DNA of 33,193 nt from positions 1 through 33,193 of the forward strand of contig JBFGLM010000048.1 of NCBI GenBank assembly GCA_041576165.1, read 5' to 3'. Origin of the DNA: Acidimicrobiia bacterium. GTDB taxonomy: Bacteria > Actinomycetota > Acidimicrobiia > Spongiisociales > Spongiisociaceae. The notes under the pieces were generated by a model. The model searched no databases, had not been told where the DNA came from, and saw only the letters and a program-made list of their open reading frames with translations. Of this stretch, positions 15,429 through 31,783 are shown in pieces. Positions within the stretch are counted from its first letter, which is position 1. Every line of letters starts with the position of its first letter. The position numbers and the translations under genes were made by a program.

Positions 15429-16009
15429 TCGGTTCTTTCGGCCGGTTCGGTCGCAGCAATGACCGGTTCGATTCGCCGAAGGTACTCGTCATGCTGGTAC
15501 GTCATGAAGTTTTCCCAGGTCGCCATTGTTGTCGGATCGTGCATGCGGTCGACGATCAGCTTGCCGGCGAGGTGATCGAGTTCGTGCTGCACGGTGCCGG
15601 CGCTCAGACCGCGATACACCTGGGTGAAGGGTTCTCCGTGCCGGTCCCTGGCCGACACCCGAACGTGCATGAACCGGTGGAGGTCGCCCCGGATCGGGAC
15701 GCTCAGGCAGCCCTCGTTGTTGAGGAACGTCACACCATCGATCGCTTCGATCTCGGGGTTGACGAGCACGGTCAAGGGGATGGGGGGCTTATACGGGTAG
15801 CGGCGGTTGCGGACGACTTCGAGGATGCAGATGCGCAGATTGACGCCGACCTGGTTGGCGGCGATGCCGGCACCGTCGGCATCGCGCATGGTGTCGATCA
15901 TGTCGTCGATGAGTTGCTGCACGGCCGGCGAGGCGAGATCGTCTTCGGCAATATCTGCGCCGACCGTCCGCAGCACCGGGTCACCGATCTGAGAAATCGT
16001 CCGGATCAT
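15425..16009 (-). CDS. def: Peptide deformylase homologue embedded in the hut operon
   Basis: All three PDF motifs are present: GAGIAANQ, EGCLS and QHELDH. ATGA overlaps with both hutI and hutH. Confidence 0.92.
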   Translation of the reverse strand: MIRTISQIGDPVLRTVGADIAEDDLASPAVQQLIDDMIDTMRDADGAGIAANQVGVNLRICILEVVRNRRYPYKPPIPLTVLVNPEIEAIDGVTFLNNEGCLSVPIRGDLHRFMHVRVSARDRHGEPFTQVYRGLSAGTVQHELDHLAGKLIVDRMHDPTTMATWENFMTYQHDEYLRRIEPVIAATEPAERTE

Positions 16010-17223
16010 TCGTCACCCCGCTCGTACACTCGCCGGCCACCCAACCAAACCTCGCGGCAGAGCGGACGGCCCAGCCAGTAGGAGAGGGCAGCGGGGTCGT
16101 CCGTGTCCCACACCGCCAGGTCGGCTCGTTTCCCGACGTCGATGATGCCGGTATCGGTCAAGCCCAGGGCGGCGGCCGCGTGGCGGGTGGCGCCGGCGAG
16201 TGCCTCGGTCGGAGTGAGCCGGAAGCGGGCCGCGGCCAGCCACATCGCCGTTGGAAGGGACCCCACCGGTGACGTCCCGGGGTTCAGATCAGTCGAAACG
16301 GCGATCGGCACGCCGGAACGGCGCATCTCCTCGATCGGGGGGAGATGAGGTTCGTTGAGGAATGTCGAAGCCCCCGGGATGACAACCGCCACCGTACCGG
16401 CTGCAGCCAATGCTTCTACTCCCGCCGCAGAAGTGTGTTCCAGATGGTCAGCCGACAGAGCCCGGTACTCTGCAGCAAGGGCCGCGCCGCCCTGGTCGGA
16501 CAGCTGGTCGGCGTGGAGCCTCACCGGCACAGCCGCGGCTTTGGCCGCCTCGAACACACGCCGGATCTGGTCCCGGTTGAACGCAATACGCTCCAGGAAC
16601 CCGTCGACCGAGTCGGCCAACTGCTCCTCGACCGCTCGCGGGATGATCTCGCGGCACACGATGTCGATATACCGGTCGGGATCGCCGGCATGTTCCGGTG
16701 GGATGGCATGCGCCGCCAGGAGGGAGGTAACCACGCGTACCGGGAGCGCGTCGGCCAGGCGGCGGGCCACCCGCAGCATCTCCAGCTCATGATCGGTCGT
16801 CAGTCCGTAGCCCGACTTGATCTCCACCGTCCCCACCCCGCTCGCCAGCAGGTCGCGCACCCGCAAAGCGGCCGAGTCGAACAATTCACGGGCTGATGCC
16901 TCCCGGGTCGCCCGCACGGTCGAGACGATGCCTCCACCGGCCCGGGCGATCTCTTCGTAGCTGGCGCCTTGCAAGCGCCGTTCGAATTCGCGCACCCGGT
17001 TTCCGCCGAACACGAGGTGCGTGTGACAGTCGATCAGCGCCGGGGTGATCAGCGCACCGGCGCGATCCACCACGTCGGTGGCGTTGACGTTTTCGGGAGG
17101 TCCGATGTGGACTATGGAGCCCTCCCGAATTCCGACGGCAGCTCCCTCCACCAGCCCATACGGGCTGGCACCTTCGCGCATGGTGGCTACCCGGGCGCCG
17201 GTGATGGCAAGGTCGACGTTCAT
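16006..17223 (-). CDS. hutI: Imidazolonepropionase
   Basis: DCHTHLVFGG, EIARAGGGIVSTV, EIKSGYGL, HADQLS, SADHLE, STDLNPGTSP. Start re-called at ATG 17223 (ATGA overlap with hutF). Confidence 0.96.
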   Translation of the reverse strand: MNVDLAITGARVATMREGASPYGLVEGAAVGIREGSIVHIGPPENVNATDVVDRAGALITPALIDCHTHLVFGGNRVREFERRLQGASYEEIARAGGGIVSTVRATREASARELFDSAALRVRDLLASGVGTVEIKSGYGLTTDHELEMLRVARRLADALPVRVVTSLLAAHAIPPEHAGDPDRYIDIVCREIIPRAVEEQLADSVDGFLERIAFNRDQIRRVFEAAKAAAVPVRLHADQLSDQGGAALAAEYRALSADHLEHTSAAGVEALAAAGTVAVVIPGASTFLNEPHLPPIEEMRRSGVPIAVSTDLNPGTSPVGSLPTAMWLAAARFRLTPTEALAGATRHAAAALGLTDTGIIDVGKRADLAVWDTDDPAALSYWLGRPLCREVWLGGRRVYERGDE

Positions 17224-18554
17224 GACGTGACCGCTTGGATGGCTGCCCGCAACCCGGTCGGGCTGTGACCGGACACGTTGTGGCCGTCTCGCACGACGGC
17301 GCGCCCACCTACCACCACGTCGGTCACGCACCCGGCGCCGGCCCCGAAGAGGACCCCGGCGATTCCGTCGGCCGGATCGAATCCGACCACCCCTCCAAGA
17401 TCAACACTGATGAAGTCCGCCGGGCTTCCTGGCGCCAGCGGGTCATGGTCGCCCCAACCGAGGGCCTTCAGGCCGTTCATCGTTCCCATGGACATGAGCG
17501 CCTCGGGAGCATGGATGCCCCGCCGACCGAGCCGGAGCCGGTCGTTGAGCTCCACGGCCCGAGTCTCGTCGAAGGGGTCCACCACCGCGTGGCTGTCACA
17601 CCCGATGCTGAGTTGCACCCCGGCGGCGCGCAATTCGGCGGCCGGTCCGATCCCGTCACCGAGATCCCGTTCGGTGGTCGGGCAGAGACAGACGCCGGTG
17701 CCTGAGCCCGCGTACAGCTCAATATCACCCTCGAGCAGGTGCGTGGCATGCACGGCCACGGCGTGGGGACCCAATACCCCGGTGTCGGCCAGCAGGCGGG
17801 TCGGGCTGACCCCGTGTTGGGCGAGACAGGCATCGTTCTCAGCCGGCTGTTCGGAAACGTGCACGTGCACCGGCGCCTCCAGCTCGGCGGCGACTTTGGC
17901 AACCGTCGGCAGGTCGGTGGCGGCAACCGCACGAACGCTGTGGGCCGCCACGCCGATCCGGGTGAGGGGCCGGTCCGCAGCAGCATTGCGGAGGTCGCGC
18001 ACCCGGTTCGCCCACCGGCCGATGGAGCCGTCCGAAAACCGCAGCTGCTGCGGATTCGGAGGCGCCCCGTCAACCCCGGCAGTCAGGTAGCAAGTGTCCA
18101 AGAGCGTCAGTCGGATTCCTGCTGCCGCGGCCGCTTCGAGTACGGCCCGACCCATCGCATTGGAGGCCTCGTAAGGGTCACCGTTCGTCTGATGATGGAC
18201 GTAGTGGAACTCGCCGACGGTCGTGAATCCCTGCCGCAACATCTCTGCGTAGACCTCGGAAGCCAGCCGGCGGTAAGAGGCCGGCGCAAGCCGCCCGGCC
18301 ACTGCATACATGAGTGCGCGCCACGCCCAGAAGTCGCCCCGCCCGGAGTGGGTCTTGCCGCGCATCGCCCGGTGGAAGGCATGCGAGTGAGCGCTCACGA
18401 ATCCGGGCAACAAGATGCCGGGAAAGCGCGATGCACCGGTGCCACCGGCGCCCGCCTGCGCGTCGGTGATGATTCCATCGGCGACCTCCAGCCCAACATC
18501 CGCTACCAGGCTCGGCCCACCCAGCCACCCGAGCGGTGCGTGCCAGCGAGCCAT
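17220..18554 (-). CDS. hutF: Formimidoylglutamate deiminase
   Basis: HSHAFHRAMRG, DFWAWR..MY, EFHYVHH, AAHSVRAV, HVHVSEQ, VHATHL, CPTTERDLGDG. Confidence 0.94.
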   Translation of the reverse strand: MARWHAPLGWLGGPSLVADVGLEVADGIITDAQAGAGGTGASRFPGILLPGFVSAHSHAFHRAMRGKTHSGRGDFWAWRALMYAVAGRLAPASYRRLASEVYAEMLRQGFTTVGEFHYVHHQTNGDPYEASNAMGRAVLEAAAAAGIRLTLLDTCYLTAGVDGAPPNPQQLRFSDGSIGRWANRVRDLRNAAADRPLTRIGVAAHSVRAVAATDLPTVAKVAAELEAPVHVHVSEQPAENDACLAQHGVSPTRLLADTGVLGPHAVAVHATHLLEGDIELYAGSGTGVCLCPTTERDLGDGIGPAAELRAAGVQLSIGCDSHAVVDPFDETRAVELNDRLRLGRRGIHAPEALMSMGTMNGLKALGWGDHDPLAPGSPADFISVDLGGVVGFDPADGIAGVLFGAGAGCVTDVVVGGRAVVRDGHNVSGHSPTGLRAAIQAVTS

Positions 18555-18557
18555 CGC

Positions 18558-20213
18558 TCACCCAGTCGCCATCGGCAAGTCGACACCCCGTTCCCGGGCG
18601 ATGGCGTGCGCCCGGTCGTAGCCGGCGTCGGCATGGCGCATCACCCCGGTGCCCGGATCGGTCGTGAGCACCCGGTCGAGCCGTTCGTCGGCAAGTTCGG
18701 AACCGTCGGCCACGACGACCATCCCGGCATGAATCGAGCGCCCGATTCCCACCCCGCCGCCGTGGTGGACGCTCACCCAGGTGGCGCCGCTCGCCGCGTT
18801 GACGAGCGCATTGAGGATCGGCCAGTCGGCGATTGCGTCCGACCCATCGGCCATCGCCTCGGTTTCACGGTAGGGCGATGCGACTGATCCTGAGTCGAGA
18901 TGATCCCGCCCGATCACGATCGGGGCGGTGAGCTCTCCGGAGCGCACCATCTGGTTGAAGCGAAGGCCGAGCCGGCGCCGCTCTCCGTAGCCGAGCCAGC
19001 AGATCCGAGCCGGCAGCCCTTGAAACGCCACCCGCTCGGATGCCATCTGGATCCAGCGTGCCAGGCCGGGATCGTCGGGAAACTCCACGAGCACTGCCTG
19101 GTCCGTGGCTGCAATGTCGGCCGGATCTCCGCTCAGGGCCACCCAGCGAAATGGCCCTTTCCCTTCACAGAACAGCGGGCGGATGTACGCAGGTAAAAAG
19201 CCGGGATAGTCGAACGCGCGCTGGAACCCGCCGAGCTGGGCCTCGGTGCGCAAGCTGTTCCCGTAGTCGAAGACCTCGGCTCCCCGGTCAAGGAAGCCAA
19301 CCATCGCCGAGCAGTGAATTGCCATGCTTGCCCGAGCTCGGCGCACCAGTTCGCCTGGATCCTCGGTTGCCATGCGAGCCGCCGCTGTGGGCGTCAGATC
19401 GTTGGGAACGTACGACATCGGATCGTGAGCCGGGGTCTGGTCGGTGACGATGTCGGCTGGGAACTCCAACTCCAGGAGACGGGGCACGAGATCGGCTGCG
19501 TTGCCGATGACCCCGACAGAAAGCGGCCGACGCTCGTCCCGGGCCACGACGCAGCGGGCCACGGCGTCCTCGAGCGATCCGGCCAGCTCATCCAGATACT
19601 TTGTCTCGAGACGGCGGCGGGCTCGGTCAGCGTCCACCTCGATGCAAAGCGCAACACCTTCGTTCATGGTGATCGCCAGCGGTTGGGCGCCACCCATGCC
19701 ACCCAGGCCGGCGGTGACCGTGATGGTTCCCGCCAGGGAGCCACCAAAGCGCTTCTCCGCAATGGCACGAAAGGTCTCGTACGTGCCCTGCAGAATGCCC
19801 TGGGTGCCGATGTAGATCCATGAGCCCGCGGTCATCTGCCCGTACATGGTGAGTCCGGCCGCTTCGAGGCGGCGGAATTCATCCCAATCAGCCCAGTCGG
19901 GCACGAGGAGCGAGTTCGCCAACAGGACTCGCGGCGCCCATTGATGCGTACGGAACACGCCGACGGGCTTTCCCGATTGAACCAGCAACGTCTCGTCGTC
20001 GTCCAAGCGCTGCAAGGTCGTCACGATGGCGTCGAAGGCCTGCCAGGAACGCGCCGCCCGGCCGGTGCCCCCGTACACAACGAGGTCATCCGGTCGCTCA
20101 GCCACCTCGGGATCGAGGTTGTTCATCAGCATCCGCATGGCAGCTTCCTGCCCCCAGCCCTTGCACACGAGTTGGTTGCCTCGCGGCGCACGAACGATGC
20201 GCGGCGCGCTCAT
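18558..20213 (-). CDS. hutU: Urocanate hydratase
   Basis: [53 protein letters not shown]. Start re-called at ATG 20213, after an AGAGGAG SD. Confidence 0.97.
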
Positions 20214-20518
20214 GTCACGCTCCTCTGCCTCGATGGGGATCTGCGGCACGGTACGCCGGCCGTCCGAGACGGGTGGCGGCGGTTGCGGGAACGAAGGCGG
20301 GGCCAGACGCTGGAGCGGCCCGGCCCGAGCCACGGTTCACGCCAGCTGCTCACGTCCCATCCACCATCCAGCGCACTTCAGCCGCTCAGCTCCTCCGCCG
20401 GGGGTCAGATCTGCTCCCAGCCTGGTGTTAGAGCCGCAGCCTATCGCGCGGTCCTCGAGAGAGCGGCGTGAGCTCACGCCGCGGCCACCGAACACCGGAG
20501 CCGGTGAGCAGTCCCTCC

Positions 20519-21124
20519 TCAGTTGTGCCGGCTGGTGCGGGAGCGTCCGGCTGTGAGCAGTTCTTGATCGAACAGCTGGCGGAGTCGCCGCAACGCTCGC
20601 TGCCGGGTCGGGCCCAGGCTGCCGATTGGCCGGCACAGAACGGTTGCCGCCCGGTCGTAGTCGACCTGGCCGTTGAGCACCAGCGTGTCGAGGATCAGCT
20701 GGTCATCCGGCCGGAGCCGCTCCCAGGCTCGGTTCATGGCAGCTCTCGCTTCTCTGTCGACCAGGCACTCGTCGGGAGCAGACTCGTGGATTGATGCTAC
20801 GTCGAACGTCAGGGGCGCTGTGCGGCGTTGTTTGCGAATCACCGCCAGAGCCTCGCGGCGGGCCGTCGTCACCAGCCAGGAACGGACCGCACCTGGATCC
20901 CGGATTTCCTCGATGTGTTCGTACAGTCGTAGCCAGACGGCCTGGCCGACGTCCGCCACCTCGGAATCGGAAAGGCGCATGCGACGGGCGACCGAGAATA
21001 CAAGTCGCTCGTGCGAACGGTACATCTCAGACCAGGCCGAGGCTGAACCGCGTCGGCATCGATCGACCAGCTCGAACAGCAGGTCCTTGTGGTGGGGTGC
21101 GTGCTGATTGGTGGCTGCCGCCAT
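20519..21124 (-). CDS. ECF-family RNA polymerase sigma factor
   Basis: Region 2 (DVGQAVWLRL...SWLVTTARREAL) and region 4 (YDRAATVLCRPIGSLGPTRQRALRRLR). ATG 21124 follows a TGAGGA SD. Confidence 0.88.
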   Translation of the reverse strand: MAAATNQHAPHHKDLLFELVDRCRRGSASAWSEMYRSHERLVFSVARRMRLSDSEVADVGQAVWLRLYEHIEEIRDPGAVRSWLVTTARREALAVIRKQRRTAPLTFDVASIHESAPDECLVDREARAAMNRAWERLRPDDQLILDTLVLNGQVDYDRAATVLCRPIGSLGPTRQRALRRLRQLFDQELLTAGRSRTSRHN

Positions 21125-21151
21125 CGCAGTCCTCAGTGACGAGACGACGCC

Positions 21152-21183
21152 ACCATGCCAGAGCGCTCTCAAAAAACGCTCAA
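21152..21183 (-). promoter_or_regulatory. Putative SARP-binding direct repeat and -10 element for the ECF sigma gene
   Basis: Minus strand reads TTGAGCG-N4-TTGAGAG-N8-CATGGT (21183-21177, 21172-21166, 21157-21152): 11-bp periodicity and 8 nt to the -10. Confidence 0.6.
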
Positions 21184-21187
21184 AGCG

Positions 21188-23944
21188 CTACAAGCTGAGG
21201 CTGCGGGCTATTGCGAACGCGTCGACTCCATCTTGGATGTCGTGGCCCAGCTCCCGGTTCAGGCGCTCTAGGTGGAATACCCGGTCTAGATCATTCGCGG
21301 CCAACCCGAGCTCGGTGTTGATTGCATGGTGCGCCGCCAGGGCTCGGCGTGCGCCGGCGGGATTGGATTCGTCTAGGTCGAGCGCGGCGAAGACGAGCAG
21401 GAGCTCGGCGACCAGCGCTCGATGCCCCACTTCGAGTGCCGCGCGCAGACCGCGCCGCGCAACCCGGCGGCTGTGCGACAGGCGGCCACGGCGCTCTTCA
21501 ATTGAGGCGAGGCGGTAAAGACTCAGAATCTCGATGCTTCGGTCGCTTCCTCGCTCGGCGAGATCGACCGCCTCATCGGCTAGCTCGGCTGCTTCATCGG
21601 GTCGGCCCGCCAAATGAGCATGAGCCGCCAGCATCGCGAGAGCGTGCGCAGCCGATGACGCATCGGACGCATCCCGAAAAGCGTCCGCAGCGTCCGCCAG
21701 CAGCCGGCCGGTCGCAGAGTCAGACGTCCCGTCGAGAAGGCTCGACTGGGCGAGGAGGAGATTGGCCCGGGCGACCGCCGGCAGGTCACCGACGCTGGCG
21801 GCGATGGCGCGCGCGGCTTCGAATTCGGCTCGAGCGTCCTCACCTGCGAACTGGTGGCCGTGTCCGAGCTCGATCAGCGCCCGGGCCTGCGGCCCCTCGA
21901 GGTCATGCCGCTCTGCCATGGCATGGGCGTGGGACGCGGCGTCGATTGCCTCTGCGTATTCGCCGCAGCGCTGTGCAACACGCGCATGGAGGAGGTGCAG
22001 CTCGACCAGGGCTTCGGATCCGTCAACGGGGGCGGACACGGCTCGCCGGAGCCAGACGAGAGCTTCCCCCAACCAACCGGGGAGGTTCATCCAGACCGGG
22101 ACAACCAGCTGGAGAATCCGCATCATGTCATCCCACCGGCCCAGCTGCATCGCCCGCGACATCGCGGCTCGACATGCCGGCTGCTCCGTTTCTGGTGCGT
22201 GGCCGGCTTGGTCGTTGCCGACTGCCCAGGCAATGATGCGTTCGTCAAAAATCGACCGGTGTGGCTCGGCATCGAGGAGCCCGCTTGCGGCCAGGCGAAT
22301 CGAATCGACGATGCGGTACTGAGCCGGCCCGGCCGGCGCCGGAATGATGTGGATCAGCCCGGCGTCATCGAGCCGTTGGATCGACGCGACCCCAGAGGGC
22401 CCGAGCAGGGCCCGAGCCACCCCGATCCCGAACATCCCCGGGATGCCGGACAGCAGGATCAAAGCGTCACGCGCGGGCCCGGTCAGGTCACCAGTCGGGC
22501 TGGGAGGGTCGCCAAGCGACCGGCCGGCCAGCGTCGCCAGATCAGTGGTCCGCAGCCGGGCGGCGGCCAGCTCGATCTCGAGTGGCACGCCGCCGGTCGC
22601 GGCCACCGCGTCGGCCAGGAGCTGTGGGTCGGCACGGAGGTCGTATCCCGGCCGCACAGCCCCGGCCCGCTGGATGAACAGGCTGACCGCCGCCAGGCTC
22701 GCCATCGTTTCGGGATCGGAGCCGCTGCGCGGAACGGGTAGGGGTCGGACTTCCGACACAGGCACGCCGGCCAATGGCGTCCGCGCAGTCGCCAGCACTG
22801 TGACCGGTTGCGCCCACAGCCAGTCCGCCGTCGCGGGGTCGATGTTGCGGGGTGGCTCAACGCCATCGAGTACCAGCAGCGAGGACATTGCCTCGAACCT
22901 TCGCTCGAGCGAGGCGCGTATATGGCCATCAACCGGTGTTCCCATCGCCGCAGCAATTGTCTGGAGCGCCAAACCCGGTTCGGTCACGCTCTCCAGATCC
23001 ACCCACCAGACCCCGCCGGCAAACTCATCGATGAGTTCAGCGGCGACCGTTCGCGCAATCGCTGTCTTCCCGACACCTCCGGGTCCGGTCAGCGCGACAT
23101 GCTCCTGGGCGCGCAACCTCGAAAGCGCTGATCGCAGTTCGGCGTCGCGCCCTATCAGCGAGTGTTGGGCCCGATCCAGATTCGTCCGGAGGGTTCCGAC
23201 CGGTCGGCCTAACGTCGGGTCCTGATTCAAGATCGCGATCTCGAGCTCTTGCAAGGCCGGGCAGGGGTCGATCCCACGGGCCTCTCGCAACCGGATCCTC
23301 AGCTCATGAAACGCGGCGAGCGCTTCCGACTGTCGACCGGCCCGGTACAGCGTGACCATCAGGAGCGCAGCCAGTGACTCGCGGTCCGGATGTTGCTCGA
23401 ACAGCGCCCTCAGCTCGGGCAGCGCTGCGTCCGGATCGAGCTCTGCCCGGGCCCGCGCTCGCGTCTCCTCGGTATGGACGTGGAGTTCTTCGAGGCGCTC
23501 GATCTCCTGGCGGACCGCATCGAGGTGTTCCACATCCACATACGCCGGACCGCGCCAGACGTCCAGCGCCGCCGTCAATTGCTCAGCGGCGCCCTCTGCG
23601 TCAGCCAGCCGGAGACGCTCGCCGCCCTGGCGGCTCAGCCGCTCGAACTCCGAGACGTCGACGTCCACGGTTTCGCGGTTGATCCGATAGCCGCCGCCCT
23701 CACCGATGATCGATGAGTGTCCCAGGATCTTGCGCAGGTTGGAGATGTGGGACTGCAGCGTGTGCTTGGTCGATGGTTTCGCGTCCTCCCGCCAGACCTC
23801 ATCAACGAGGCGATCCGCCGAGACGGTGAGTCCGCCCCGCACCAGCATCACCGACAAGACACCTTTGGCCACCACGCCGCCTACCGATGCGCGCTCTCCG
23901 CCCCGCACGACATCGATGGCGCCGAGCACCCGAACGGCTACCAC
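21188..23944 (-). CDS. AfsR/SARP-family regulator (OmpR-type wHTH + BTAD + STAND NTPase + TPR-like helices)
   Basis: VRVLGAI, LQSHISNLRK and GGYRI; BTAD segment WRGPAY...HPDRE...LYRAGRQSEAL; Walker A GPGGVGKT, Walker B LLVLD, GVPLEIELAAAR; Ala-rich helical repeats; AAGAGGAGG SD. Confidence 0.92.
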   Translation of the reverse strand: MVAVRVLGAIDVVRGGERASVGGVVAKGVLSVMLVRGGLTVSADRLVDEVWREDAKPSTKHTLQSHISNLRKILGHSSIIGEGGGYRINRETVDVDVSEFERLSRQGGERLRLADAEGAAEQLTAALDVWRGPAYVDVEHLDAVRQEIERLEELHVHTEETRARARAELDPDAALPELRALFEQHPDRESLAALLMVTLYRAGRQSEALAAFHELRIRLREARGIDPCPALQELEIAILNQDPTLGRPVGTLRTNLDRAQHSLIGRDAELRSALSRLRAQEHVALTGPGGVGKTAIARTVAAELIDEFAGGVWWVDLESVTEPGLALQTIAAAMGTPVDGHIRASLERRFEAMSSLLVLDGVEPPRNIDPATADWLWAQPVTVLATARTPLAGVPVSEVRPLPVPRSGSDPETMASLAAVSLFIQRAGAVRPGYDLRADPQLLADAVAATGGVPLEIELAAARLRTTDLATLAGRSLGDPPSPTGDLTGPARDALILLSGIPGMFGIGVARALLGPSGVASIQRLDDAGLIHIIPAPAGPAQYRIVDSIRLAASGLLDAEPHRSIFDERIIAWAVGNDQAGHAPETEQPACRAAMSRAMQLGRWDDMMRILQLVVPVWMNLPGWLGEALVWLRRAVSAPVDGSEALVELHLLHARVAQRCGEYAEAIDAASHAHAMAERHDLEGPQARALIELGHGHQFAGEDARAEFEAARAIAASVGDLPAVARANLLLAQSSLLDGTSDSATGRLLADAADAFRDASDASSAAHALAMLAAHAHLAGRPDEAAELADEAVDLAERGSDRSIEILSLYRLASIEERRGRLSHSRRVARRGLRAALEVGHRALVAELLLVFAALDLDESNPAGARRALAAHHAINTELGLAANDLDRVFHLERLNRELGHDIQDGVDAFAIARSLSL

Positions 23945-24150
23945 GAGCCTGCGTCCTCCTCTTGGGACCCATTATCGCGACCCAGGCTCGGGCTGGGGGA
24001 GTCTGTCTGGTGCGCGCCTGATGGTGGCGGGCGTGTGAAGCAATGCAGCCGTCGCAGCTGTCGTGCACCGCAATCAGCTCCTTGACTCCGCCGGCCGGAA
24101 GGCCCGCAGACGCGATCTATCGCCGGTACTGTGTCCTGAGGAGGTGGCTC

Positions 24151-24717
24151 GTGCCGAACATCAGTTATCCGAAGCTAGACGATCTAGCTCCGGAGGACCG
24201 AGAGATCATCGAATACGGGAGCTTGCACTCGACCCCTCGGCCGGAGAGCCAGACGATCCGCGCCCATGTGCCGGCCGTGTTGCATGCTTTCACCAACGCG
24301 TGGCGAGCGACGTTTCTCAACGGTGTGCTCGACCATGAGGTCAAGGAGCTATGCCGCGTCTACGTATCCAAGTCGATCGAGTGTGATTACTGAGGCGTTC
24401 AGCGATCCGTCCAGGCTGGACGGAAAGGCCTGACGGAGGAGCATTACGACGATCTGCTCCGGTTCGAAGACTCGGACCGGTACTCACCCCGGGAGAAAGC
24501 TGCCCTGCGATACACCAGCGCCATCCTCTGGGATGCGGGGATTGCCGATGAGGAGCTCTGGATAGAGCTCCACGCGCATTTCACCGAGCCAGAGCTCGTT
24601 GAACTCGGCTTTTTCGTTGCGCTGACCAGTGGTCAGCAGCGGTGGATAAAAACGCTCGGGATTGGACACCATGAAGTCTTGGGCGAGACCGAGGTGGGCT
24701 TGGCTCCTTCGGTGTAA
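24151..24717 (+). CDS. AhpD/carboxymuconolactone-decarboxylase-like protein, probable selenoprotein (C-D-Y-U, in-frame TGA at 24391-24393)
   Basis: GAGGAGGT SD, then GTG 24151. The frame reads ...VLDHEVKELCRVYVSKSIECDY*GVQRS...LLRFEDSDRYSPREKAALRYTSAILWD...DEELWIELHAHFTEPELVELGFFVAL... to TAA 24715-24717 with no other stop. The TGA falls at the second Cys position of the AhpD CxxC motif. Confidence 0.85.
24394..24430 (+). promoter_or_regulatory. Candidate bacterial SECIS element
   Basis: 12 nt after the TGA there is a perfect hairpin TCCGTCCA-GGC-TGGACGGA (24406-24424) with a G-led apical loop. Confidence 0.7.
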
Positions 24718-24803
24718 CTGCGCGTCCGCTTCCGGGTACCAGGACCTTCGAATAGGGGCATTCCCCCATAGTCAGAAGGGCACGCTGGATTCACAATCGT
24801 GAT

Positions 24804-25268
24804 GTGGAACCGGCAACGGCCAAGGTCAATCCAAATCGTGTGCTCCTCCTCATCGGAGCCGGCATAGCAGCACTTATTGTGGCTGTTCTGGCACTCAGCG
24901 CGGTTCGACGGGACCATCATCCGGAGCCTGGTACACCGGATGCCACCGTTGCGACCTACCTCGAGGCCATATTCGAACGGGACCATCAAGCAGCAGTCGC
25001 GCATTGGACGGAAGAGATCGGTGCCGATTGTTCTCGGGTTGACCTGACTCGGGCTTGGATCCCCCAAAACGTCAGAGCCGTTCTGGTCGCAACCCGAATC
25101 GATGGGAACACCGCCCAAGTCGACGTCGAGATGACGGATGCGTCCGGTGGGTTGCTGTTCGAGCACGAGTTCCAGGAGACCTTCTGGCTGACCCGTACCG
25201 GCGAGGGCTGGTTGATTTCCGAGATTCCCTGGCCCCTCTACGCATGCTCCGAAAGGATCGACCCATGA
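24804..25268 (+). CDS. Membrane-anchored hypothetical protein
   Basis: N-terminal TM helix, then PDATVATYLEAI...GWLISEIPWP (NTF2-like appearance); ATGA-coupled to the next gene. Confidence 0.7.
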   Translation: MEPATAKVNPNRVLLLIGAGIAALIVAVLALSAVRRDHHPEPGTPDATVATYLEAIFERDHQAAVAHWTEEIGADCSRVDLTRAWIPQNVRAVLVATRIDGNTAQVDVEMTDASGGLLFEHEFQETFWLTRTGEGWLISEIPWPLYACSERIDP

Positions 25269-26980
25269 TCGCCGCTCTCGTGCCGCTACTTGTGATCGGA
25301 GGGCTCATTGCGCTCGTCATCCGCGTCGTCGGCCGTCGCACGGCACAGACGGGAGAAGCAACCAGTGTCACCGTGCGCCGGTTCTTCCACTACGCGCTCA
25401 TGTACGGCGTGTTGGTCGTGGTAGCCATTGGCGTCAGCGGGCTGCTGGCTGAGATCATCCCCGCCCGAGGGATCGAAGTGCGCCGTGATCCCGTGGTGCT
25501 GGCCCGCTCGCTCGCGTTCGTCATTGTGGGCTCTCCCACCCTCGCCGGCCTCGGGATGTGGACCCAGCGTTTGCTCGATCGGGAGCCCCGGGAACGCGCT
25601 TCGTTCGGCTGGGCCTTCTACTTGACGGCTTCGCTGCTGAGCGCCCTCGTCGTGGCCGGCTGGGCGGCATTCGAGGCTCTCGGGTGGGTATTTGGGTTCG
25701 AAGATTTCGATCGGGAGTCATGGGCCCGGGCGGTCGTGTGGACTGTGGTCTGGGCTGGCCATTGGTGGCTTTCGATACGGGCCGGTCATCCCCCCCGCCT
25801 GCGCTTGGAACGTCTCGCCGGATCGGCCGCCGGCTTGATCGGCGTCGGAACCGCGCTGGGAGTGGCGCTGACCGCAGTTCTGGCATCGCTGTATGACGCC
25901 ACGGTTGAGGCGCCGGTGATCGTGCCCCTTGCGGACGGACTTGGTCGAGGCGGGGCGGGCGTGCTGGTCGGGGGCCTGATCTGGTGGTGGTACTGGCATC
26001 GCGGCGCGGTGCAGTTCAGCCGCGATACGCTGTGGCACGCCTACGTCCTGCTCATCGGGGTCTTCGGGGGGCTCGCCACAACCGTCGTGTCCGGCACTTT
26101 GGCGCTGTACACGGTGCTCGAGTGGTTCATCGGCGATCCGTCTGCCGCGACCGCGGCCGCTCAGTTTGACTCCGTTCCGGCCCAAGCGGCTGGTGTCATC
26201 GTCGGCGCCGGGCTCTGGTTCTACCACCGGGCCGTCCTGCGGGTGGCCGGCGCAACCGGACGCACGGACGTCGACCGGATCTATGACTACTTGATCGCTG
26301 GGATCGGGCTGCTGGCTGCGCTGGGAGGTGTCACGACATTGCTCGTTGCCGTGATCGACACGGTGCTGCCCGCGCCGGCTGTCGAGTTGGGAGCCTCGGC
26401 ACGCAACACACTGCTGGCCGCTATCACGCTGTTGGTGGTGGGCGGTCCGATCTGGTGGACCTTCTGGTCTCGTATCCAGGGTCTGATCCGGAAAGAATCA
26501 CGTGGCGAACAGACCTCCCCGATCCGACGGGTGTACCTGTTCGTTTTGTTCGGAATCGGCGGAGTGGCGGCGCTGATCAGCCTTCTGGTCGTCATGTTCG
26601 TTGCTATCGAGGACCTGATCGAAGGCAGGTTCGGCGCCGAGACAGTGAGGGACCTGCGTATTGGCTTGTCGATTGTGCTCACGGTGGGAGCGACGGCCGG
26701 GTACCACTGGAGCGTGTTCGGCCGCGATCGGGAGGTCGAGCCGGAGGAGCCCCCCGGGGTGAGGTCAGTCGTGCTGGTCGACCGCAACGGCGCAGCCCTG
26801 GCCGCCGCCATCTCTGACCAGTTCGGGGCGCGAGTCAGGCAGTGGCATCGCTTGGACGACCACGCCCCCGTCATCGACCCCGACGCCGTACTGCGAGCTC
26901 TTGCCGAGGAACGGTATCCCCATGTGCTGGTGCTGTCAGGGCCGGGAGGAGTCGAGATAGTGCCGTTCGAAGAGGACTGA
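25265..26980 (+). CDS. Multi-pass membrane protein, DUF5671-like repeats
   Basis: Start re-called at ATG 25265. Repeated helical-hairpin units beginning R-x-Y-x-Y/F and ending W-x-x-H/Y-W (RRFFHY, HAYVLL, RIYDYL, RVYLFV; WAGHW, WWWYW, WWTFW, GYHW), then a short soluble tail. Confidence 0.7.
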   Translation: MIAALVPLLVIGGLIALVIRVVGRRTAQTGEATSVTVRRFFHYALMYGVLVVVAIGVSGLLAEIIPARGIEVRRDPVVLARSLAFVIVGSPTLAGLGMWTQRLLDREPRERASFGWAFYLTASLLSALVVAGWAAFEALGWVFGFEDFDRESWARAVVWTVVWAGHWWLSIRAGHPPRLRLERLAGSAAGLIGVGTALGVALTAVLASLYDATVEAPVIVPLADGLGRGGAGVLVGGLIWWWYWHRGAVQFSRDTLWHAYVLLIGVFGGLATTVVSGTLALYTVLEWFIGDPSAATAAAQFDSVPAQAAGVIVGAGLWFYHRAVLRVAGATGRTDVDRIYDYLIAGIGLLAALGGVTTLLVAVIDTVLPAPAVELGASARNTLLAAITLLVVGGPIWWTFWSRIQGLIRKESRGEQTSPIRRVYLFVLFGIGGVAALISLLVVMFVAIEDLIEGRFGAETVRDLRIGLSIVLTVGATAGYHWSVFGRDREVEPEEPPGVRSVVLVDRNGAALAAAISDQFGARVRQWHRLDDHAPVIDPDAVLRALAEERYPHVLVLSGPGGVEIVPFEED

Positions 26981-27006
26981 ACGACCAGGTCAGCGCAAGG
27001 CCGGCT

Positions 27007-27885
27007 TTAGCCGTACGCGGCGGGATCGGATTCGAACGCTTCCTGGCAGCCTGCGGCGCAGAAGTAATGGCTGGTGCCGTCGTATTCCGTGACGAAGCGG
27101 GCAACACGAGGATCGACGTCCATGCCGCACACCGGATCTGTTGCCATCTCCGGTGCCGCGACATCGACTGGAGAGCCGACTCCACCCGCCCGGAACCTCA
27201 CCAGTTCGGCAAGAACCGAGACGGCGATCTCGCGGTGTTCGGTGTGACCGAGGTCCACGCCGGCCGGCGCATGAAGCCGGGCGAGCGCCTCGTCCGGCAC
27301 ACCTCGAGCCCGCAGCCACTCTTTCACTGTGGAAGCCCGTTTCTCGGAGGCCACCAGGCCCACGTACGCGGCGTCGGTGGCGAGCGCGGTTTCCAATGCG
27401 GGCTCGTCGAAATGGCCCTGGCTTGCAACCACGACGTAGTCGCGCGCGGTTACGCCGACCATCTCAGGGCCGTCGTACGCCACGGCAGACCAGTCCAACG
27501 CAGTGACCATCTGCGCCAGCGCGGCCGTCAGCGGTGAGTCCCCGACGATGTGCACTCGGGGGTTGGGCAGCATCGGTTCCACCAGCACCTCCATCGCCCC
27601 TTCACTGGAGCATGCCATGGGCACCACGATCACACCAGGCCGGTCGTCGGTGGCGCCCAACACCAGCAATCGGGCTCGACCATCGGCGAGCGCAGCCAGC
27701 GCCTGTCGCACGAGCGTCGGCTGGGCGCAGGCACCCCCGACCCAGCCCTCCACGGTTCCGTCTGGATGGATGATCGCCTTGGCTCCGGTCTTCCCGGAGG
27801 ACGGACCCCGTACCCAGGTCACACTGGCAAGCACGAACGCCCGCCCCTCCGCCATCAACCGGGCGACGCGGGCCAGAACGCTCAC
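27007..27885 (-). CDS. XdhC/CoxF/CoxI-family Mo-cofactor chaperone fused to a C-terminal YHS domain
   Basis: FVLASV...GWVGGAC, YVGLVASEKR, LHAPAGVDLG...EIAVSVLAEL, then DPVCGM...YFCAAGC..AF..DP..Y. Start is GTG 27885 or 27903. Confidence 0.88.
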   Translation of the reverse strand: MSVLARVARLMAEGRAFVLASVTWVRGPSSGKTGAKAIIHPDGTVEGWVGGACAQPTLVRQALAALADGRARLLVLGATDDRPGVIVVPMACSSEGAMEVLVEPMLPNPRVHIVGDSPLTAALAQMVTALDWSAVAYDGPEMVGVTARDYVVVASQGHFDEPALETALATDAAYVGLVASEKRASTVKEWLRARGVPDEALARLHAPAGVDLGHTEHREIAVSVLAELVRFRAGGVGSPVDVAAPEMATDPVCGMDVDPRVARFVTEYDGTSHYFCAAGCQEAFESDPAAYG

Positions 27886-27925
27886 GGCGGTTCCCCCCAC
27901 CACGAACGAGGGTGGGAGGCCCGCT

Positions 27926-30285
<2,360 letters not shown>

Positions 30286-30289
<4 letters not shown>

Positions 30290-30756
30290 GTGTTGCCTCC
30301 CCGCATCGTTGCCCCGGCCGCCTGGATCGCTTTGACGATGTTCATGTATCCCGTGCAGCGGCAGATGTTCCCGCTTATGGCCCAGCGCACCTCCTCGTCG
30401 CTGGGGACGGGATTGTCCTCCAGCAATGCGGTCCCAACCATCATCATGCCCGGCGTGCAGAAGCCGCACTGGAGGCCGTGGTTGTCCTTGAACGCGGCCT
30501 GGATCGGGTGCAACTCTCCGTTCTTCAACCCCTCCACGGTGCGGACTTCACGGCCGTTCGCCTGCACTGCAAACACCGTGCAGGACTTCACCGGCCGGCC
30601 GTCGAGCAGCACGGTGCACGCGCCACACGACGTTGTGTCGCATCCGATATGGGTACCGGTCAGCCCGAGCTCGGAGCGGATGAAGTCGACCAGGAGCATG
30701 CGCGGTTCTACGTCGCTCGACGCAGATGCGCCGTTGATGGTCACGGTGACTTCCAT
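30286..30756 (-). CDS. coxS: CO dehydrogenase small (2Fe-2S) subunit
   Basis: [12 protein letters not shown]...[20 protein letters not shown]. Confidence 0.95.
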
Positions 30757-31631
30757 CAGGTTTCTCCTCTCGCGGTGACCAGAGCTGCGGCAAATCCGCG
30801 TCTGGTGTATTCGGCGACGACTGCCCGTTTGTATTCGGCCGGTCCCCGGACGTCCGATTGGGGATCGCAGGTGCGAGCGGCGATGTCGGCCGCCTCGGCG
30901 AACAGCTCCGCAGTGGGTTCCTGGCCGATCATCATCTGCTCAGCCTCCACCACCTTGGTGTTCTTAGTGGCGACTGAGGTGAGTGCCAGCCCCGCGGTGG
31001 CCACCTGCCCGGCCTCGGTGAGGGCGAGGTGGGTAGCGACACCGACGGTGGCGTAGTCGCCGATCTTGCGCTCCAGCTTCAAGTACGTCCCGCCCGACCG
31101 GGGCGGATTCTTCGGTACCCGCAGCTCGGTGACCATCTCACCCGGTTGGAGCGAGTTGGTGAAGAAGTCGACGACAAAGTCCTCGATCGGGATCTCGCGC
31201 TCGCCCGAGCTGGATCGGGCCACGACGGTGGCGCCGATGGCCAGCATCACCGAGTTCCAGTCGCCTTCGGGGTCGCAGTGGGCAACCGAGCCGGCAACCG
31301 TTCCCCGGTTCCGCACAAGCGGATCAGCGATCCACGGCGCGGCCGCTGCCACGAGGTGATTGCCCGCGGCGATCGCGTCCGACGTGGCCACGTCGGCGTG
31401 GCGGGCGAGCGCACCTATGGCTATGTCGCCGTTGCCGTTTGTGACGTACGACAGTTCCTCGATCTGGTTGATATCGACCAGGTGCGCCGGTGAAGCCAGG
31501 CGTAGCTTCATCATCGGGATGAGGCTCTGTCCTCCGGCCAGCACCCGACCCTCTTCGCCGGTGTCAGCCAGAATTGCCAGGGCTTCCTCCAAGGTTGCGG
31601 GTGCCGAGTAGTCAAAAGCGGGTGGATACAT
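30756..31631 (-). CDS. coxM: CO dehydrogenase medium (FAD) subunit
   Basis: [51 protein letters not shown] before ATG 31631. Confidence 0.93.
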
Positions 31632-31783
31632 CCCGCATACCTCCTCGCTGGATCTATCGCCGAACCTAGCCAACGCGCCCTGCCCCGCGTCGGCTGAGAT
31701 GGGTAGTGGCTGACATTGCCAGCTGAGCCGCGCCGGGAGCACTAGCCGGAGGTGCCGCCGTCGGGCCGGTTAGTGGTGAGTGG

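Follow-up and report, generated by a model that had tools for sequence, protein, structure and literature searches.

What does a TGA codon mean when it lies within a reading frame whose protein domain continues on both sides of it? The question is raised by a gene at 24151-24717 on the forward strand of contig JBFGLM010000048.1, from the Acidimicrobiia bacterium assembly GCA_041576165.1 (the whole stretch analysed, 33,193 nucleotides, is referred to below as the window). An earlier note on this DNA, made from its letters alone, saw here a hidden selenoprotein of the AhpD/CMD type, with a C-x-x-U motif and an adjacent hairpin resembling a selenocysteine insertion sequence (SECIS). Our analysis of homologues, orthologous loci, RNA structure and the selenocysteine (Sec) machinery of the assembly suggests that 24151-24717 (+) is very probably a genuine Sec-decoding selenoprotein gene, with the hairpin at 24406-24424 as its SECIS. 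The AhpD-like reductase function that we would assign to its product is less certain than its identity as a selenoprotein. The features on which this reading leans are as follows.

24140..24144, forward strand: Shine-Dalgarno-like GGAGG with a 6-nt spacer to the start codon (read directly from the sequence)
24151..24717, forward strand: predicted AhpD/CMD-fold selenoprotein coding sequence of 188 residues, with a GTG start, Sec codon 81 and a TAA stop (translation, Pfam, orthologues)
24382..24393, forward strand: predicted redox motif Cys78-Asp-Tyr-Sec81, or C-x-x-U (sequence, translation, alignment A1, profile alignment with PA0269)
24391..24393, forward strand: UGA very probably read as selenocysteine, codon 81 (TGA or TGC in orthologues, Cys or Trp in homologues, contigs of other runs)
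24406..24424, forward strand: putative apical hairpin of a bacterial SECIS, 8 bp with loop GGC (covariation in orthologues)

The gene opens with GTG at 24151 and runs for 80 codons that end in I-E-C-D-Y (the TGT of Cys78 occupies 24382-24384 and is followed by GAT and TAC), meets the TGA at 24391-24393, and continues for 107 sense codons to a TAA at 24715-24717, such that reading the TGA as U gives a product of 188 residues with a single recoded codon (U81). The earlier note had described this arrangement, from the Shine-Dalgarno sequence to the TAA, and every coordinate in it is found in the sequence as given; the same is true of its perfect 8-bp hairpin with a GGC loop 12 nt after the TGA, and of its remark that the second half has no start and is missed by the track of open reading frames (ORFs). 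In the gene's frame, the table-11 ORF list holds only 24043..24393 (116 aa), that is, the 5′ part, and it contains no ORF of at least 40 aa in that frame within 24394-24717. As there is no usable start downstream of the TGA, the 3′ part cannot be a separate gene. At the 5′ end, ATG, GTG or TTG lies exactly 80 codons upstream of the TGA in 10 of 11 close loci, and this conserved position identifies the GTG at 24151, rather than an upstream ATG at 24043, as the start.

A single domain spans the stop. The Pfam CMD profile (PF02627) matches residues 41-122 with 38.9 bits (cut-off 23), covering profile positions 1-82 of 84 and running across the TGA, which places the protein in the CMD superfamily. 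A database search returned 3001 homologues, and the best 120 of these, which are 183-325 residues long (mostly 183-207) and cover 89-100% of the query, were analysed at the column of codon 81. Cys occupies this column in 108 and Trp in 10, the remaining two being unresolved by the search pattern. The Trp forms (P0002, P0018, P0027, P0033, P0035, P0052, P0053, P0067, P0074 and P0081) carry the window protein's own flanking signature, C-x-Y-W-G-x-Q-R-S-V, and are JGI and ENA metagenome gene calls, mostly on short contigs (those listed are mostly 1-4 kb); we infer that their Trp residues are TGA codons translated by gene callers under a model in which TGA encodes Trp. An alignment of 21 sequences (A1) likewise has only C or W at this column, with E66, C78, Y80, Q84, R85 and S86 invariant, and its conservation reaches the C-terminus, and so lies on both sides of the TGA.

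The codon itself was followed across related genomes. Among 61 genomes (60 relatives and the window's own), the identical codon is TGA in three orthologues of 77-81% identity (L023, L024, L025) and TGC in orthologues of 55-66% identity (L026-L033; L026 comes from an unpublished genome, G032, and no result depends on it alone). By their record titles, the nearest orthologues (78-81% identity) belong to metagenome-assembled genomes (MAGs) of Acidimicrobiia, and on these titles the host of the window is itself Acidimicrobiia-like. Four loci from this search, including the window's copy, were combined with the best 80 of 585 relatives found by a contig scan that used one genome per species, giving 84 loci in all. 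Codon 81 is TGA in 64 of them (63 distinct, as one is a duplicate) and TGC in 20; the share of TGA is overstated, the loci having been ranked by their likeness to a query of the Sec form. The orthologue from G012 is a Cys form, and the sole TGA in it is its stop codon.

A quick tree of 83 rows, with Shimodaira–Hasegawa-like approximate likelihood ratio test (SH-aLRT) support, requires only three changes of the Sec/Cys label, as compared with a mean of 18.2 for shuffled labels. The 11-row clade that contains the window gene is all Sec and mostly Acidimicrobiia; an all-Cys Acidimicrobiia clade adjoins it, and the Sec rows of the tree span 10 phylum labels, although the labels of MAGs can be wrong. 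Two placements in the tree are odd, namely L059, on a contig labelled Kiloniellales (Pseudomonadota) and found inside the Acidimicrobiia Sec clade, and L122, on a contig labelled Saprospiraceae (Bacteroidota) and found inside an Acidimicrobiia Cys clade; both point to mis-binning or recent transfer.

The hairpin that begins 12 nt after the TGA pairs 24406-24413 with 24417-24424 in eight perfect base pairs around the loop at 24414-24416, and its presence goes with that of the TGA. At the window's fixed stem positions, all eight pairs form in 28 of the 64 TGA loci, seven in 35 and six in one, as compared with 0-5 of the eight in the 20 TGC loci. In an ungapped alignment (A2), 92.9% of the cells of this upper helix are paired, and seven of the eight pairs are formed in at least 57 of the 63 distinct rows. 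Changes on both sides are seen in four of the eight pairs (columns 24/38, for example, hold CG in 45 rows, GC in nine and UA in nine), and the covariation score of 0.184 compares with a mean of 0.113 for shuffles, none of 500 reaching 0.184, and with at most 0.072 for slid partners. Some of these compensations combine an amino-acid change on one arm with a synonymous change on the other, and compensation at the cost of an amino acid is a sign that the RNA itself is under selection. All 64 TGA sequences have G as the first base of the loop, and more distant CMD paralogue families in the relatives have a TGA at the same column with a hairpin at the same offset, built from other arm sequences. 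A candidate lower stem (columns 11-16 with 43-48) was rejected, only 59% of its cells being paired, and an Rfam scan of the whole window gave no family at gathering score.

Taken alone, the hairpin is not beyond chance. The 66-nt stretch has a z of -2.26, with five of 200 shuffles folding as well, and a crude scan of this genome of 65% G+C gave 157 in-frame TGAs in long open frames with a comparable hairpin, most of them noise; such a scan serves only to single out candidates that have redox motifs. It is the comparison of orthologues that lifts the hairpin above chance.

Both halves of the gene are under equal purifying selection, with a ratio of nonsynonymous to synonymous substitution rates (dN/dS, or ω) of ∼0.1. 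Over the 55 pairs of 11 close loci, the median is 0.101 upstream of the TGA (80 codons) and 0.095 downstream, values that are rough, since dS has reached saturation in most of the pairs and the medians leave out those pairs that gave no value. In seven of the same 11 loci the gene's own reading frame ends at a TGA, a sign that TGA also serves as a stop codon in this lineage. As for the letters of the codon, 24391-24393 is covered by contigs from four other runs in three studies (X2, spanning 24055-24586; X3, 24000-24716; X5, 24267-24420; X6, 24000-24417), two of which (X5 and X6) come from studies different from the one behind the possible source sample. The list of differences contains nothing at the codon and has only two entries, 24366 A>G (X5) and 24679 T>C (X3). 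None of the runs listed for this DNA is an RNA run.

A complete set of genes for Sec decoding (selA, selB, selD and the tRNA-Sec gene, selC) is present in the assembly (G000), a MAG of 161 contigs with a completeness of 96.5% and a contamination of 7.5%. All of the following score above their cut-offs: selA in two copies (422.9 and 421.9 bits), selB in two copies, each adjoining a selA, selD (397 bits; C1:171385-172317, reverse strand) and tRNA-Sec in two copies (79.9 and 72.9 bits, both with the anticodon tca according to ARAGORN). The selD gene has one in-frame TGA, at the G-A-G-U-x-C-K position, and SelD itself is thus predicted to be a selenoprotein in this genome. The paired genes are located as follows.

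C24:55512-58621, strand not stated: selA-selB (profile matches)
C100:605-3619, strand not stated: selA-selB, second set (profile matches)
C1:33376-33466, strand not stated: tRNA-Sec (ARAGORN)
C145:1292-1382, strand not stated: tRNA-Sec, second copy (ARAGORN)

SelA identity between the two copies is 54%, the tRNA-Sec genes agree with each other at 75 of 91 bases, and the contigs that carry one of the Sec sets are small (8.9 kb and 3.2 kb); five relatives have one selA each above the cut-off. A second organism in the bin is a likelier source of the two sets than a true duplication.

The earlier note had proposed a 188-aa Sec-containing AhpD/CMD redox enzyme and had named the kinds of observation on which that proposal would stand or fall, and each of the computational ones has come out in its favour. 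Codon 81 is Cys in homologues, or TGA in orthologues, with similarity on both sides; only the TGA forms keep the hairpin, and in them it covaries; selA, selB, selC and selD are all in the genome; the same codon recurs in contigs of independent runs; and purifying selection on the 3′ half equals that on the 5′ half. Together with the Pfam match, these observations support the proposed enzyme, as far as comparative sequence data can.

Several observations nevertheless weigh against decoding as Sec with this hairpin as the SECIS, among them the ranking behind the count of TGA loci and the roughness of ω, both given above. The minimum free energy (MFE) fold predicted for the window RNA is not the hairpin but a longer stem (-22.5 kcal/mol, as compared with -18.6 kcal/mol when the hairpin is enforced), and the ensemble probability of the hairpin's pairs is only ∼1%. 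This alternative fold, at 24406-24437, starts at the same 5′ base and pairs the 5′ arm of the conserved hairpin with a downstream stretch, forming an 11-bp stem, interrupted by one bulged C, around a 9-nt loop; it is predicted to be ∼4 kcal/mol more stable. It is not conserved: it is complete only in L089, and the MFE folds of L067 and L073 also leave the short hairpin, but in other ways. SelB may therefore bind either the short hairpin or the longer fold. Likewise, in an assembly with two divergent Sec gene sets and a contamination of 7.5%, either set may serve this contig.

How else might the TGA be explained? It could be an inactivating nonsense mutation in an AhpD-like gene, and the table-11 frame does end after 80 codons, with only that part in the ORF list. 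Such a pseudogene is extremely improbable, however, when the same TGA is found in 64 of 84 orthologous loci under 10 phylum labels, when ω is 0.095 in the 3′ part and 0.101 in the 5′ part, and when the TGA forms, unlike the Cys forms, have a covarying hairpin. The 10 of the best 120 homologues that have Trp in this column, as translated by their sources, might instead suggest that an alternative code or near-cognate read-through puts Trp or another standard residue at the TGA. We give this hardly any credence, as 108 of the 120 have Cys there, as the second Cys of a CxxC redox motif, while TGA ends the gene's own frame in seven of 11 close orthologues and the assembly has the complete Sec machinery. 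A sequencing or assembly error might be suspected in a fragmented metagenome assembly (161 contigs, 7.5% contamination), but the codon is covered by contigs of four other runs with no listed difference, of which X5 and X6 come from studies other than the one behind the possible source sample, and is shared by orthologues, such that an error is likewise most improbable. We retain the reading of the TGA as a Sec codon.

Under that reading, a ribosome that arrives at the UGA of 24391-24393 would find the mRNA hairpin at 24406-24424 serving as SECIS; the hairpin would recruit SelB-GTP and Sec-tRNA(Sec), and selenocysteine would enter as residue 81. This is the established bacterial mechanism, which we presume to operate here as well. 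Sec81 and Cys78 would then form a C-x-x-U selenol/thiol redox pair at the CxxC position of AhpD-type proteins. Judging from its family, the protein is most likely a small selenol-based oxidoreductase, which may reduce a peroxiredoxin-type partner or act directly on peroxide or disulfide substrates. Sec probably occupies the attacking position, by analogy with the AhpD of Mycobacterium tuberculosis, in which the second Cys is the nucleophile.

The predicted fold is in keeping with this reading. The AlphaFold 2 model is all-helical, with a mean predicted local distance difference test (pLDDT) score of 80.6, and the structure that Foldseek ranks first is 2prr, an ‘alkylhydroperoxidase AhpD core, peroxidase-related protein’, with a template modelling (TM) score of 0.71 over 185 columns; the other best matches are Atu0492, the AhpD of Pseudomonas aeruginosa (PA0269) and Bmp8. 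A profile match to PA0269 (2ijc; E 3e-10) aligns C78-D-Y-U81 with C-A-Y-C, that is, with a CxxC motif whose second position would be Sec here. The proton relay of PA0269 consists of Glu36, Cys48, Tyr50, Cys51 and His55 (PMC3141380). Glu66, Cys78, Tyr80 and Sec81 match the first four at the same spacing (Glu66 lies 12 residues N-terminal of Cys78), and opposite His55 stands Arg85, four residues C-terminal of Sec81, so that four of the five relay residues have a counterpart.

The product may also be a genuine selenoprotein that is not an AhpD-type peroxiredoxin reductase and does other chemistry on the same fold, for example a reductive dehalogenation like that of Bmp8, or a reaction with another small substrate. 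The relay His, which the PA0269 paper (PMC3141380) calls invariant in AhpD-like structures, is replaced by an Arg found without exception in the Sec forms and the Cys forms alike, and the Bmp8 debrominase is among both the sequence and the fold matches. No peroxiredoxin or ahpC gene was found near the selenoprotein gene, and no neighbour is common to more than 18 of 83 loci, other than frames that overlap the gene itself. The pLDDT falls below 50 at residues 79-84 and 175-188, which makes the active-site part of the model unreliable. All of this weighs against the function that we have assigned. Yet four of the five PA0269 relay positions are matched by Glu66, Cys78, Tyr80 and Sec/Cys81, the best fold matches are ‘peroxidase-related’ AhpD-core proteins, and nothing positive was found for any particular alternative substrate. 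We regard other chemistry as a real possibility, if an unlikely one, and prefer an AhpD-like reductase.

Selenoproteins of this kind are already known, and the earlier note was right to say so and to place them mostly in metagenomes. AhpD-like CxxU selenoproteins (COG2128) have been in print since 2005, when 27 sequences were described from the Sargasso Sea (PMC1088965), and the Global Ocean Sampling (GOS) study of 2008 gives 299 sequences for AhpD-like 1 (COG2128, CxxU) and 70 for AhpD-like 2 (Pfam CMD) (PMC2398784). They are also described from complete genomes (PMC1794560), are listed in a 2026 review under TIGR01926, PF02627, NF041047 and NF041238 (PMC13188914), and have a family page in BSepDB (PMC13326102). 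The window protein appears to be related to these proteins and probably works like them: in both cases there is a C-x-x-U on the AhpD/CMD fold with Cys in most homologues, a SECIS hairpin directly after the UGA and a mostly metagenomic origin. The JGI name for the homologues is ‘alkylhydroperoxidase family enzyme’, which we take to be the product name of COG2128.

Despite this likeness, the window gene lies outside every curated selenoprotein model tested. TIGR01926 (peroxid_rel) can be aligned with residues 4-171 of the 188, but its score of 30 bits falls short of the cut-off of 81.8. The best NCBIfam match, NF053654 (GroundWater_YciW, ‘YciW-related (seleno)protein’; E 6.4e-11, residues 36-171), is a selenoprotein-aware model of the same superfamily, but with 42.3 bits against a cut-off of 310 the window protein is clearly not a member. 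The AhpD proteins of M. tuberculosis and P. aeruginosa (2o4d, 2ijc, 7xw1) have the same two-helix catalytic motif with the same spacing, but their second Cys is predicted to be Sec here and their relay His (His55, or His137 in M. tuberculosis) is Arg85. The window protein also has ∼40 extra N-terminal residues, as do 190-residue ‘peroxidase-related’ proteins such as 2prr, and lacks a nearby ahpC. Bmp8 (6ohi, 6ohj) shares the CMD fold (TM 0.73, profile E 8.1e-09), but its sequence identity is only ∼20% and the gene's neighbourhood has no sign of halopyrrole metabolism. The putative SECIS resembles that of Escherichia coli fdhF, the type of the bacterial elements, in being a stem-loop some 11-12 nt after the UGA with a G in the apical loop. 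It differs in that the conserved part amounts to 7-8 bp closing a loop of 3 nt (or 5 nt in the Ktedonobacterales forms), with no conserved bulge or lower stem.

These differences raise the possibility of a distinct AhpD-fold subfamily, mainly Sec-containing, that all curated selenoprotein models miss, an idea that we find doubtful and put forward only tentatively. It would be suggested by the replacement of the relay His by Arg throughout (E-x11-C-x-Y-U-G-x-Q-R-S), by Sec in MAGs under 10 phylum labels and by a SECIS that is nearly invariant among these phyla. If such a subfamily exists, these features combined would suggest repeated horizontal transfer of the gene together with its SECIS, and a chemistry or partner other than that of AhpC recycling.

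The locus is of interest chiefly for annotation and for the Arg that replaces the relay His in its active site. The gene and its many orthologues are at present truncated, dropped or given Trp at the catalytic residue, and Sec forms occur in the searched protein collection only as Trp mis-translations (the 10 among the best 120 matches). The earlier note had expected gene callers to truncate such a gene or to call it a pseudogene; truncation is indeed seen, but in those ten homologues the TGA was read through as Trp instead. The family signature combined with the hairpin would offer a simple rule by which Sec forms might be recovered.

Upstream of the selenoprotein gene, the nearest features are the following.

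23945..24139, no strand: intergenic region between the divergent BTAD/NB-ARC/TPR regulator gene and the selenoprotein gene (ORFs and Pfam)
21188-23944, reverse strand: BTAD/NB-ARC/TPR regulator of 918 aa, divergent from the selenoprotein gene (ORF and Pfam)

A scan of 23900-24900 found neither a sigma-70-type promoter nor an intrinsic terminator; the promoter presumably sits in 23945..24139. The wider neighbourhood (16006-23944 and 24804-31742) holds two amidohydrolases and a urocanase (histidine utilisation, hut), an extracytoplasmic function (ECF)-type sigma factor, a DUF5671 membrane protein, an XdhC fused to a YHS domain, and the large and FAD subunits of a molybdenum hydroxylase. Clustering of the stop-to-stop frames in the flanks of the 83 loci, with a minimum length of 90 aa, gave no shared neighbour, a weak negative given that frames are noisy at high G+C; the two largest clusters are the gene's antisense frame and its own 3′ part, and the next comprises 18 loci without the window.

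Elsewhere in the assembly, further CMD/AhpD-type genes have a TGA at the second CxxC position, at C19:24283-24792 (-), C15:34926-35327 (-) and C93 near 1905 (-), with the motifs C-N-Y-TGA-G, C-E-Y-TGA-T and C-H-Y-TGA-V, respectively, and a hairpin after each. A Cys-form paralogue of 45% identity is located at C15:9949-10440. The scan for a TGA with a hairpin also gave an FdhA-like candidate (C-N-R-T-TGA-H, C58 near 21375, forward strand), as well as four thioredoxin-fold-like candidates with W-TGA-P-x-C and two with D-TGA-G-x-C that resemble the ‘UGSC-containing’ family of the GOS paper; the sites of these last two groups are C1 near 208964, C49 near 20073, C110 near 2726 (+), C3 near 117754 (+), C8 near 28279 (-) and C52 near 19752 (+). 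The window gene adds to the evidence for a sizeable selenoproteome in this Acidimicrobiia-like organism, which would comprise SelD, three or four CMD-type CxxU genes at the least, and the FdhA, thioredoxin-like and UGSC-like candidates.

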